This document shows, piece by piece, positions 14,796 through 35,951 of a stretch of DNA of 42,235 bases. The DNA lies in the UHGV virus genome UHGV-1993760. One strand, given 5' to 3'. This DNA is from a virus. How positions within the stretch are numbered: position 1 is the stretch's first letter; every line of letters starts with the position of its first letter. The notes beneath the pieces are model-generated. The model was not told where the DNA came from, made no database searches, and saw only the letters and a list, made by a program, of their open reading frames with translations. Made by a program: the position numbers and the translations under genes.

Positions 14796-15131
14796 TCAGG
14801 CGTGGCTGATGGCACTTCCCACAAATGCGTTGGCTTTTTTCACCGCATCCACAGAGTCAGGCCAGACCAGCGACTCAGTGGCAAACGTACCGCTTTTGTA
14901 GTACGTCAGCGTGGGTTCTGTTCCGGTAAGCGCCAGAGCCAGCACCCCCACTGCCGTTCCGGCTTTCTGACCATCCCATGCCACCAGTTTACCGGTGGCG
15001 TCATCCAGCATCAGTGGCGTCAGTGCAGGCGTGGCAGCACTGATACCACTGGTGGCTGTTGCGGTATGCGCCGGATCGCTTCCGGCAAAAATGTGCACAT
15101 CCGCGCGCTTTTCCGTGGTGGTTTTAATCAT
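14796..15131 (-). CDS. head decoration protein (lambda gpD-like)
   Basis: 111 aa; ...SDPAHTATA...[18 protein letters not shown]...YYKSGTF... closely matches recalled lambda D. Confidence 0.9.
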
Positions 15132-27431: not shown

Positions 27432-28589
27432 ATGACCACACTCAAAGAACTCAAAGAAGAGCTTGCTCAGATTCAAGATGAAAACGCGAAAAATAGAAAA
27501 AAAGCTGAAATTGCAGCCTTGGTCACTTCTGCCGACAACGAGATTAGGCTTGCTCAGAGAAATATTGGATACAACGTACGTGAATGGACCGTTGAATTAA
27601 TTGTACAAAAGTATGGCAATAATCTTGAAACTGACAAAAACGAACTTTTTATTCCTGATTATCAACGCGATTACAAATGGGATATCAAAACAGCCTCTCG
27701 ATTCATCGAAAGTATATTATTAGATTTTCCAATCCCGTACCTCTACATCTCCGACGTATTTAATGAAGATCCTGAGTTGGATGGTCGTGTAGAAATTATT
27801 GACGGTTCACAAAGGATTCGCTCAATTTACTACTTTTGGAACAATCAGTTTGAATTGAAAGACTTAAAAGAACTCAAAAGTTTAGAGGGCTTCAAATTTT
27901 CAGATCTTTTGGCTAGCCGCCAGAGGCGATTTTTAAGGGCATCACTAAGATTTATTGAATTGAAAGGTGATGTTGAGGAGCAACATAGAAGAGATTTATT
28001 CGAAAGAATAAATTCAGGTGTTAAGAGACTGGAAGCGATGGAGGTTAGACATGGTTCAGATGCGGCCACTTCAATTTTCTATAGGGATGTTGTGACTCCT
28101 TGCTCAATAAATCCACTTTTCGCTAGTCTAGCTCCATTATCAGACCGGAAGCGTTCGAATGGCGATCATCGTGAGTTAGTTTTGAGATTTTTTGCATACT
28201 TAAATGATTTAGAAAATTATAAGGGTTATGTCGCTCCTTTTATTGACAATTATCTTAATGTTCAGGCCGAAAGGGTCACACAACAAGATGTTGACAAATT
28301 TAAACATGATTTTGAAAGCATGCTTGCTTTTGTAGATGCTCATTTCCCTATGGGGTTTAAAAAGACACCAACAAGCAAAACCACCCCCCGTGCTAGATAC
28401 GAAGCCATAGCAGTGGGAACTGCTCTTGCCTTAAAAGCCAATCCACATCTACAGGCTCCGGTTATTCCTGTAGGAGACTGGCTGTTTGGGGAGGAATTTG
28501 AAACCATAGTTACTGCTGATAGTGCCAACAACACCAGCCAACTCAAAAACAGAATATTTTATGTCAAAGATAAATTATTAGGAATGTAA
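27432..28589 (+). CDS. DUF262 (ParB/Srx-fold, GmrSD N-terminal-like) domain protein
   Basis: 385 aa; ...FIPDYQRDYKW... (aa 73-83) and ...EIIDGSQRIRS... (aa 121-131) match the DUF262 signatures as I recall them (QR.Y.W and DGQQR-like); no recognisable C-terminal HNH/DUF1524 motif; AAAGGAA RBS; AT-rich gene. Confidence 0.65.
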   Translation: MTTLKELKEELAQIQDENAKNRKKAEIAALVTSADNEIRLAQRNIGYNVREWTVELIVQKYGNNLETDKNELFIPDYQRDYKWDIKTASRFIESILLDFPIPYLYISDVFNEDPELDGRVEIIDGSQRIRSIYYFWNNQFELKDLKELKSLEGFKFSDLLASRQRRFLRASLRFIELKGDVEEQHRRDLFERINSGVKRLEAMEVRHGSDAATSIFYRDVVTPCSINPLFASLAPLSDRKRSNGDHRELVLRFFAYLNDLENYKGYVAPFIDNYLNVQAERVTQQDVDKFKHDFESMLAFVDAHFPMGFKKTPTSKTTPRARYEAIAVGTALALKANPHLQAPVIPVGDWLFGEEFETIVTADSANNTSQLKNRIFYVKDKLLGM

Positions 28590-28591
28590 CT

Positions 28592-29281
28592 ATGAGTTTG
28601 ATTGATTTAAGAGATGAATACGAAGAAAGAGCAAGAGATATTATGGAATTGCTTTCTCTTGCGTCATCTTTAGAGGCTCAGACTCAGCAGTTAGATCAGC
28701 AAACGCATAAAGATGAAATAGAATCAAATACCCTTAGGGTTAACATTTTAAAATCATCCGTGCACATGATGCTGTACAATCAGGTTGAAAACACTGCCAG
28801 AGGATGCATTGAGTCAATTTATGACCATTTGCAAGATAATGAAGTAAATTACGCATCACTCAGGGAGAAATTCCAAGTAAATATCTTGCACCGTATCATT
28901 TCAGATAATGAATCGGGAAAATCTCTTTATCAAAAAATTGGTTCCGATATATCTAAAAGGATCATTTCAGCCTCATTAAACATACGTAAAGAATTCAATG
29001 GTAATGTTTGCAAGTCTGTATTGCACAAAATAACACAAGCTTACGGAATAACTGTTGCAAACTCACCAGAGTGTAGAAATGGTGTTGACTTAGATTTACT
29101 TAAAGATATCAGAAATGAGCTGGCACATGGAAGTACCAGCTTTTCTAAAAAAGGTCAAATAGACCCTTTAGAAGAAGTCAAATCGAGGTCAGAAAGAATT
29201 GATCTATATTTGCGTTTATTAATCAACTCAACAGAAAATTATATTACCTCTAACGGGTATTTATCCCCTCAACATGTCTGA
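28592..29281 (+). CDS. HEPN-motif protein (predicted RNase-like effector), translationally coupled to the DUF262 gene
   Basis: 229 aa; ATG 2 nt after the DUF262 stop; mostly helical; C-proximal ...DIRNELAHGS... (nt 29111-29128) fits the HEPN Rx4-6H motif. Confidence 0.45.
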   Translation: MSLIDLRDEYEERARDIMELLSLASSLEAQTQQLDQQTHKDEIESNTLRVNILKSSVHMMLYNQVENTARGCIESIYDHLQDNEVNYASLREKFQVNILHRIISDNESGKSLYQKIGSDISKRIISASLNIRKEFNGNVCKSVLHKITQAYGITVANSPECRNGVDLDLLKDIRNELAHGSTSFSKKGQIDPLEEVKSRSERIDLYLRLLINSTENYITSNGYLSPQHV

Positions 29282-34251: not shown

Positions 34252-34472
34252 ACGGCACCTCCCAGGCGTTTAAACATTTTTCCGGACTGAAACGCCACCA
34301 GTGGGTAACTGATGGTGTAGTTACGCCCCAGTAATTCACACACGACTTTCTGGCTTTCGGTACTGACCAGGCAAACCCGCAGAACATGGCCGTTGCTGGT
34401 GGCAAACCACTGCCCCACACGGGGGCAACGGTTGTATCGGTGATACAGGGAATTAACGACGCGGCGAATCAT
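34248..34472 (-). CDS. small hypothetical protein
   Basis: 74 aa from ATG 34472 (ATGA overlap with the upstream stop). Confidence 0.3.
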   Translation of the reverse strand: MIRRVVNSLYHRYNRCPRVGQWFATSNGHVLRVCLVSTESQKVVCELLGRNYTISYPLVAFQSGKMFKRLGGAV

Positions 34473-35131
34473 GGGCGCACCTCCCATTGATTACGGCTGA
34501 AAGCGGTGTGACTGGGGCTGTTTTCTGCCTCATGGAATGCTTCAATACAGCTCTCGTAGTACCGCATTGTGCGCAGACTTAACCCAAGCTGAAGCATCAT
34601 CAGCCCATCAAGGGTAATGTAATAACCACGCAGGGAATCGCCATACACGTGGTAAGTACCCGGTATGAAATTACGGGAGAAGAATTCACGCGAGCAGTTC
34701 AGATACTCGATTTTGTCGACGATGTTCTGGTGCATGCGCTTAAAGTGGCAGGCAACATGCAGGGAGAAAATAACAGCTTTGCCGTTGACGACTTCGATTT
34801 TCAGGTATGGGGAAGTTGGGACTGTAGCCATGATGGCAGCCTCCGATAACAGTGAATTACCTTCACCACCGGAAACGCCAATTTCGCTGGTGGTGAACTG
34901 AACGGGGTTGGCGTAACCGGCGTTATCGGAAACCGGCGCACCTTTCGGTGCCCCCGCCCAGCCCACCATAATTTGGGTGTGCGCAGACGCAGACGATAAA
35001 AAAGACGCTGGTGCGTCATATATCGCCGATAACATTTCCAGGACGCCAATCCCGGCACCCGCTTTATAAGGTGCCAGAACAGTGTAACGTCCCGAAATTG
35101 CAGAATCAATATTTAGGCTTGAAACATTCAT
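34469..35131 (-). CDS. hypothetical protein
   Basis: 220 aa from ATG 35131; the N-terminal 78 codons of track ORF 34469..35365 overlap the Rha-like gene and look non-coding. Confidence 0.35.
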   Translation of the reverse strand: MNVSSLNIDSAISGRYTVLAPYKAGAGIGVLEMLSAIYDAPASFLSSASAHTQIMVGWAGAPKGAPVSDNAGYANPVQFTTSEIGVSGGEGNSLLSEAAIMATVPTSPYLKIEVVNGKAVIFSLHVACHFKRMHQNIVDKIEYLNCSREFFSRNFIPGTYHVYGDSLRGYYITLDGLMMLQLGLSLRTMRYYESCIEAFHEAENSPSHTAFSRNQWEVRP

Positions 35132-35155
35132 ATGATTACTGGTATTTTTACTAAC

Positions 35156-35245
35156 GCAAATGTTCTTGGATGTTACTGGCTTACTTCTCTGTGAAGTTGC
35201 CTTTACCAACGTTGAGCGAGCCGGGTCACTACCCGGCTTTTTTTC
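35156..35245 (+). ncRNA. candidate OOP-like antisense small RNA (promoter plus terminator on the strand opposite to the early-right operon)
   Basis: Plus-strand -35 TTGAAA (35119-35124), 18-bp spacer, -10 TATTTT (35143-35148); plus-strand hairpin ccgggt-cact-acccgg (35221-35236) followed by T7 (35238-35244) overlapping the stop of the Rha-like gene. Confidence 0.3.
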
Positions 35246-35951
35246 ACCGCTGCCAACCAATAACCTGAAATAACCCCATTTTCGGGTGATACCAGCGAGT
35301 CCCTCGCGGTTCTGCTTCCTCCATAACCCGATAAAAAGCAGCCATAAACGGTTCCACAGCAACAATTGCGCGACGTGACAACAATCCGTCCGGCGTCATG
35401 AACTCATGGGTGTCTGTAGGAATTTGATAGGCGTTCACCAGATTGCGGCATTTATCATCTGACAAACCGGTTTTCGCTTTCAGTTGGCGATATCCGGCAT
35501 AGCCCTCACGAATGGTGCCCTTTTTGATTTGCTCAACTGTTTCGGCAACGTGGCTGACTTTTTCTTCCACCTGAGTGATCCGTTTCTGCTGGCGAACGGC
35601 TTCAAGAGCCATCGCAGCAACCATTTCGATTTCGCTCATTGGCTTACGGATCTGCTCTTCCAGTTCGCGCCAGCGATCTACCAGGCGGGCTGTGAATTCG
35701 GGACAAAGCTGTGCGACGACAATGATGCTGTCGCGTTTGCCTCGTTCACCTTCGAAAAGATAATGCTTACTTTTTTGAGTTAAACCTAACCCATTGATAT
35801 TTTCAGAAATCCCCATTGGGGGAAGCTGAATAATCCTTCGTTCAGCAAGGCGCTCAATGGATTGTTTCACTTTGTCATGGCGGCTGCCCACCAGCTCTGC
35901 GATTTCAACGCTGGTCATGGATGCTTTGCCGTTAAAAATTGTTGTATTCAC
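35244..35951 (-). CDS. Rha-family phage regulatory protein (possible antirepressor), in the cII position
   Basis: GTG start with GGAGA 6 nt upstream; N-terminus ...MTSVEIAELVGSRHDKVKQSIERL... resembles the Rha N-terminal domain as recalled. Confidence 0.5.
   Translation of the reverse strand: MNTTIFNGKASMTSVEIAELVGSRHDKVKQSIERLAERRIIQLPPMGISENINGLGLTQKSKHYLFEGERGKRDSIIVVAQLCPEFTARLVDRWRELEEQIRKPMSEIEMVAAMALEAVRQQKRITQVEEKVSHVAETVEQIKKGTIREGYAGYRQLKAKTGLSDDKCRNLVNAYQIPTDTHEFMTPDGLLSRRAIVAVEPFMAAFYRVMEEAEPRGTRWYHPKMGLFQVIGWQR

Follow-up and report, generated by a model that had tools for sequence, protein, structure and literature searches.

In phage P22, the small RNA sar, whose role is summarised in PMC12197685, is annotated as a 70-nt RNA whose terminator (15021-15058) overlaps the stop codon of arc (the arc CDS ends at 15022) and whose promoter (15097-15125) lies within the first codons of ant. 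The mode of action of the lambda RNA oop is antisense-directed RNase III decay (PMC12197685). Small RNAs also govern the antirepressor modules that carry the C4 RNA of P1 and P7 and the IsrK RNA of Gifsy-1, and the module PisrK-isrK-orf45(C4)-anrP has been characterised in Gifsy-1, where PisrK is active (PMC4825925). We analysed a 42,235-nt stretch of viral DNA (UHGV virus genome UHGV-1993760, referred to below as the window), in which a promoter-terminator unit on the plus strand lies antisense to the rightward early operon, in the gap between a Rha-like gene and an isrK module. Its sequence elements suggest that an antisense RNA of ~90 nt is probably made from this unit, and we regard this predicted RNA as a credible, unannotated cis-antisense RNA of the temperate-phage regulatory region.

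The genes around the unit follow one another on the minus strand in the order cro, Rha-like gene, gap, isrK module and replication genes. The first gene of the rightward early operon, cro (36205..35948), is followed by a Rha/Roi-like regulatory gene (35244..35951), which matches Pfam Phage_pRha and PHROG anti-repressor/regulator families and bears the name Roi or Rha in the annotation of relatives. Beyond the gap, we read from the sequence a homologue of PisrK (35081..35109), with TTGATT at 35109-35104, a 17-bp spacer, TACACT at 35086-35081 and a start near 35074. It is followed by the isrK small RNA gene (34998..35074; Rfam RF01394, 62.7 bits for a gathering score of 50), by a C4-type antisense RNA gene corresponding to the orf45/STnc1160 region of Gifsy-1 (34886..34973; Rfam RF01695, 82 bits for a gathering score of 45; PMC4825925) and by an anrP-like antirepressor/Rha-domain gene (34469..34834; Pfam Phage_pRha, C-terminal part, and PHROG regulator families). 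Judging by sequence, the combination of isrK, C4 and a Rha-domain gene is a module of the P1-immI/Gifsy-1 type. The segment that holds PisrK (35077-35112) is kept in many phages. On the plus strand, the repressor-side region (36223-37271) carries in tandem a gene for a cI-like HTH_3 protein of 162 aa (36283-36771), in which no peptidase domain was detected, and a gene for a CII-like regulator (36840-37271). In another part of the window, two consecutive plus-strand ORFs of 385 and 229 aa (27432-29281) lie amid minus-strand genes and are possibly a moron or accessory cassette.

The first-pass annotation of this region had proposed a sigma70-like promoter on the plus strand, with TTGAAA and TATTTT separated by 18 bp, and this promoter is present. 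The -35 hexamer TTGAAA (35119..35124) matches the consensus at five of six positions, and the 18-bp spacer leads to an extended -10 element, TGgTATTTT (35140..35148), in which TGg directly precedes a hexamer (35143-35148) that matches at four of six positions, A2 and T6 included. We scored 84,400 positions with a weighted matrix that combines textbook hexamer frequencies with a bonus for the TG. The candidate reached 13.5 bits, which ranks it second of 84,400 with the TG bonus and thirteenth without it, and it exceeds the PisrK homologue (12.1 bits with the same matrix). A simple count of consensus matches was unremarkable (eight sites of at least 9/12 in 4.5 kb versus 5.2 expected); no other plus-strand site in the 2 kb that precede the terminator matches at 9/12 or better. 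The promoter alone proves nothing, because sites that score as high under the weighted matrix arise ~4.5 times per 84 kb in random sequence. The candidate (35119-35148) is separated by 70 nt from a hairpin on the same strand, and the post-hoc probability of finding such a promoter 60-150 nt upstream of a same-strand terminator in this non-coding gap is ~0.005. Its -35 hexamer lies 9 bp from that of PisrK, and the two promoters stand back-to-back and diverge.

Two further plus-strand sites resembling promoters lie within the Rha gene, antisense to it. One of them, TTGAGT-17-TATTTT with a TG (35775-35803; 13.5 bits), has the highest score in the window, and the other reads TTGCCT-16-GATAAT (35737-35764). 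Both point through cro, in antisense, toward cI, as does PRE of lambda, and the gene for the CII-like regulator lies at 36840-37271.

The plus-strand hairpin, AGCCGGGT-cact-ACCCGGCT (35219-35238), has a perfect 8-bp stem with six GC pairs and a 4-nt loop and leads into a run of seven T residues (35238-35244). These are the hallmarks of an intrinsic terminator (35219..35244), namely a GC-rich stem, a short loop and at least six T, and the hairpin contributes about -15 kcal/mol. The Rha-like ORF (35951..35244) ends in a TGA at 35246-35244, and the overlap of the T-run with this stop codon, which the first-pass annotation had also reported, amounts to one base (35244). We scanned both strands of the 42-kb window for strict terminators (perfect stem of at least 7 bp, at least five GC pairs, loop of 3-8 nt, at least six T). 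Two were found, versus none in 100 Markov simulations. The other one, at 25528..25509 on the minus strand, lies ~270 nt downstream of three tRNA genes on the same strand (25798-26104). Read on the minus strand, the hairpin at the Rha stop is followed by CGCUCAACG and not by a T-tract, and no terminator was called there. Because the T-tract is directional, it is the real argument for transcription of the plus strand; an assignment of the strand from RNA structure is weak.

Among 5,426 complete E. coli genomes, 237 (~4%) contain the promoter-terminator unit, which also occurs in about 93 IMG/VR contigs and in gut metagenomes. Its carriers include Stx2a/Stx2d phages, ASU11, PhiR49_2 and Stx2_EH2201 and the strains E. 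coli CE10 (NC_017646, at about 2510100-2510200), ST131 strain 4993 and O145 FWSEC0002. The unit exists in three haplotypes: haplotype A is that of the window, haplotype B is 82% identical to A across the gap and haplotype C 76%, compared with ~86% identity between C and A over the surrounding ~1.6 kb. The promoter spacer and the RNA body diverge among the three, yet TTGAAA, TGnTAT(T/C)TT, a GTTCTTGGAT core, CGTTGAG(C/T)G and the terminator with its T6-T8 tract are kept in all of them. The -10 element of haplotype C reads TGaTATCTT and scores 13.35 bits. Conservation of the -35 region could partly reflect shared ancestry. The core belongs to a conserved block close to the predicted 5' end, TGTTCTTGGATGTT (35161..35174), whose flanks diverge; the core itself shows rare single-base variants only (loci L014, L114 and L165). 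Three more scans of IMG/VR and a scan of metagenomes yielded no further haplotype of this type, returning the four known forms (the fourth is described below) and chance matches.

In every occurrence of these three haplotypes, the unit is flanked by this Rha/Roi allele on one side and by the isrK module on the other. Phages that carry isrK behind other genes share only the segment 35077-35112 and lack the unit, which argues against the unit being part of the isrK module. Likewise, it is not a general feature of Rha genes: 13 distant homologues (from Yersinia, Providencia, Proteus, Atlantibacter, Budvicia and others) present no intergenic hairpin, and their next gene begins at the Rha stop or a few bases from it, without any intergenic gap. 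The unit thus belongs to the Rha-isrK junction.

Transcription from the candidate promoter is inferred to start at 35153-35156 and to end in the T-run, which would give a non-coding antisense RNA of ~89-92 nt (35154..35244). In haplotype A, this RNA is predicted to fold into a long imperfect stem-loop followed by the terminator hairpin (MFE of -31.4 kcal/mol, z = -3.9), and haplotypes B and C yield the same architecture (z = -3.3 and -3.8, respectively). The apical hairpin of haplotype A, GGC-uu-ACTTC-tctgt-GAAGT-t-GCC (35178..35201), is replaced at the same position in the two others, such that the apical helix is ACUUC/GAAGU in A, CUGC/GCAG in B and GGAGC.GUUUU/GAAAC.GCUCC in C. The structural alignment was made with a covariance model; a plain MAFFT alignment, analysed with RNAalifold, misaligned the helices through indels. 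The covariance model of haplotype A recovered B with 60-68 bits and C with 29-32 bits, in both cases on the plus strand. In this alignment, which is fitted to the model and covers three lineages, 97.1% of the pair cells contained standard pairs versus 31-57% in slid controls, and four pairs were changed on both sides. There are three to four haplotypes in all and therefore few independent comparisons. The RNA body is ~4 kcal/mol more stable as a plus-strand RNA in A and B and equally stable on both strands in C. Among the substitutions that are compatible with pairing through a G.U wobble, about four favour the plus strand and two, both in haplotype C, favour the minus strand.

It had also been claimed that nothing on the plus strand is coding here, and our analysis agrees. 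The only ORFs beginning with ATG (32 and 37 aa) extend 24-29 nt beyond the T-run, their start and frame differ between haplotypes, and no plus-strand ORF ends inside the predicted RNA; a small plus-strand protein was rejected as an explanation. The search for targets in trans gave no candidate within the phage. Complementary 9-mers (29 versus 28.3 expected) and 10-mers (8 versus 7.3) occur at chance level, no site complementary to the conserved 5' block was found elsewhere in the window, and the duplex energies of the RNA with IsrK, C4 and the start region of anrP equal those of shuffled sequences. The predicted RNA (35154-35244) also spans no Shine-Dalgarno (SD) sequence or start codon in the window, the start of anrP lying at ~34834. 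Since the RNA overlaps Rha by the last base of its stop codon alone and reaches no ribosome-binding site, the intercistronic RNA is the only obvious regulatory target.

A different version of the unit occupies the same junction in phiP27-type phages, where a gap of 52 nt separates the same Rha allele from a downstream ant gene (in phiP27, locus L005, GTG at 2073-2071 and SD sequence GGAG at 2083-2080). The antisense strand of this gap presents the promoter TTGATT-18-TGaTATTGT (12.4 bits) and a different terminator hairpin, GGCCGG...CCGGCC, whose T-rich tail runs across the Rha stop codon. The RNA predicted from it (~60 nt) would start at the start codon of ant, cross its SD sequence and display the anti-SD sequence CUCC in a hairpin loop. 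The unit was located at 2037-2131 of L005, at 17 further loci and in L164 and L177. It is not alignable with the unit of the window. The same predicted architecture is therefore found to recur in unrelated sequence, with even the TGn and the spacer length of 18 bp in common. This sar-like RNA appears to be unannotated in the records of phiP27.

Judged by the layout of its sequence elements, the closest architectural match of the unit is P22 sar rather than oop. Both loci present, in order, the stop codon of the upstream gene, a terminator, the RNA body and a promoter where the antirepressor unit downstream begins; in the window, the T-run (35238-35244) meets the stop codon (35244-35246) and the promoter lies at the edge of the isrK-anrP unit. 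The phiP27-type unit reproduces the layout of sar exactly, including antisense coverage of the SD sequence and start codon of ant. The window differs from P22 in that an isrK-C4-anrP module with its own promoter takes the place of the ant ORF downstream, and in that its predicted RNA reaches no ribosome-binding site, whereas that of its phiP27-type relative covers the one of the antirepressor gene; a translational block of the sar type is therefore not applicable in the window. The upstream gene differs as well: it is Rha, in an early operon controlled by CI and Cro, whereas in P22 it is arc, in the separate immI operon. The alignment with P22 Psar-sar was not above that of shuffled sequences, and no match to the Rfam sar model was obtained in the window or in phiP27 (E-value mode).

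The first-pass annotation had likened the unit to lambda oop, and this comparison holds for part of its features. As with oop, a short RNA is predicted to lie against the rightward early operon, directly after its second gene, with a promoter that overlaps the start of the next unit and an end at an intrinsic terminator. Polarity, position and the promoter-terminator arrangement thus support the comparison. In contrast, oop covers tens of nucleotides of the 3' coding part of cII whereas the candidate reaches base 35244 only, and the neighbour of oop is the replication gene O whereas that of the candidate is an antirepressor RNA module, whose isrK, C4 and anrP genes had been overlooked. Sequence similarity was not found either: the local alignment with lambda pO-oop scored 17 versus 15.4 +/- 2.3 for shuffles, 254 of 1000 shuffles scoring as high. 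Homology with oop was assessed by alignment only, as Rfam holds no oop model. The unit would work like sar and oop while belonging to neither family by sequence.

The C4 and IsrK genes are the immediate neighbours of the candidate, 80-270 nt away, and the promoter of their module stands back-to-back with that of the candidate. The candidate, which is proposed to act on the antirepressor module as C4 and IsrK do, differs from them by its opposite strand, its unrelated sequence and the lack of meaningful complementarity. On the plus strand, no family of Rfam 15 reached its gathering threshold; the best were AS-pc01 (18.4 bits for a threshold of 79) and SorY (15 bits for a threshold of 111). The RNA is unreported in the literature that we consulted (Tree 2014 with its supplements, the IsrK paper PMC4825925 and the review PMC12197685) and in sequence-string searches, and no TSS or RNA-seq data for carrier strains were found in the literature.

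Several readings of these elements were weighed against that of an antisense RNA acting on the early operon. It is possible that the plus-strand terminator itself is what selection maintains: it would insulate Rha, cro and cI by blocking antisense transcription that leaves the antirepressor module, including incidental divergent firing beside PisrK, and the short RNA would be a non-regulatory by-product. Such a role is consistent with three observations. A plus-strand terminator adjoins the stop of this Rha allele in two forms of unrelated sequence and in two downstream settings; cI lies downstream on the plus strand, so that transcripts reading in would be sense to cI and antisense to cro; and no trans target was found in the phage. 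Left unexplained, however, are the conservation of the 5' block, the compensatory changes of the apical hairpin and a top-ranked promoter whose unusual 18-bp spacer and TGn geometry recur in both types of junction, and we consider it somewhat unlikely that insulation accounts for the unit. That the arrangement is a coincidence, or the decaying remnant of an older ant-sar-like junction, appears very improbable to us. Promoter-like sites of such a score do arise by chance, the unit is limited to one lineage of E. coli prophages and distant Rha homologues do without a gap. Nevertheless, the terminator is far beyond what the simulations produced by chance, and the elements are intact across haplotypes that are only 76% identical, in hundreds of genomes and metagenomes.

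Alternatively, the hairpins may act in the early-right mRNA, for instance by stabilising the cro-Rha segment at its 3' end, by marking a processing site before isrK or by serving as a nut-like site, the plus-strand RNA being absent. The helices are symmetric, so that their conservation alone cannot assign the strand, and two substitutions of haplotype C keep the pairing on the minus strand only. Furthermore, the gap is the first intergenic one downstream of the rightward promoter, and a boxA-like CGCTCAAC lies 3' of the hairpin on the minus strand. Yet this motif matches boxA at five of eight positions and becomes CACTCAAC in haplotype C, and no N-like antiterminator was found among six left-operon proteins scanned; the nutR-like form of this reading was rejected on these two grounds. 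The conserved T6-T8 tract has meaning on the plus strand only, and the minus strand offers the RNA body no better fold; we hold an element of the minus strand to be quite improbable.

The conservation and recurrence of the unit make a real transcript likely. From the sequence elements and by analogy with sar and oop, we lean towards a compact antisense transcription unit whose transcript is really made and has an effect on the early operon. In this model, a plus-strand sigma-70 promoter, constitutive or moderately strong, would fire back-to-back with the isrK promoter, and the resulting RNA, structured, non-coding and ~90 nt long, would end at the strong terminator that overlaps the Rha stop. 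This RNA would be complementary over its whole length to the stretch between Rha and isrK on the long early transcript (cro-Rha-isrK-C4-anrP-replication genes) and not to the transcripts of PisrK, which start at 35074. Pairing would mark the early transcript for double-strand-specific cleavage or decay, a mode of action that we borrow from oop and sar (PMC12197685), and interference by convergent transcription would be added to pairing. The output of Rha, and of Cro, would thereby be lowered and the antirepressor module uncoupled from the promoter controlled by CI and Cro, while the terminator would also bar antisense transcription from Rha, cro and cI.

A more far-reaching proposal is that the candidate is a third RNA of the IsrK/C4 node, placed where a lambda-type CI/Cro switch adjoins a P1-type antirepressor module under RNA control, and that it would there gate the delivery of IsrK, C4 and AnrP from the early promoter. 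We consider this unlikely; if true, a node of three RNAs would couple two otherwise separate immunity systems. The conserved 5' block GUUCUUGGAU might also act on host mRNA in lysogens.

The current genome annotation of this region is misleading, since an ORF named "ash family protein" or "putative antirepressor" (35131..34469, minus strand) is called on top of PisrK, isrK and the C4 gene. Its Pfam Phage_ASH match (aa 16-108) corresponds exactly to the DNA of PisrK, isrK and C4 (34807-35131). The numbers of variable sites at the three codon positions are flat in isrK (14/11/12) and C4 (14/14/18) as compared with the anrP part (27/24/67), which indicates that the "Ash" half is not evolving as a protein. 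Within this ORF, only the anrP part (34469..34834) evolves as a coding sequence, and Phage_ASH may largely represent translated RNA genes.

Carriers of these units include Shiga-toxin converting phages (Stx2a/Stx2d phages and phiP27) and prophages of pathogens, among them ST131, K1 and APEC strains. In such phages, the expression of the antirepressor decides prophage induction and, hence, the release of toxin. An antisense RNA at the entry of the antirepressor module would, if real, constitute an extra control on this decision. It would also extend the principle of sar and oop to the widespread Rha-isrK junction.
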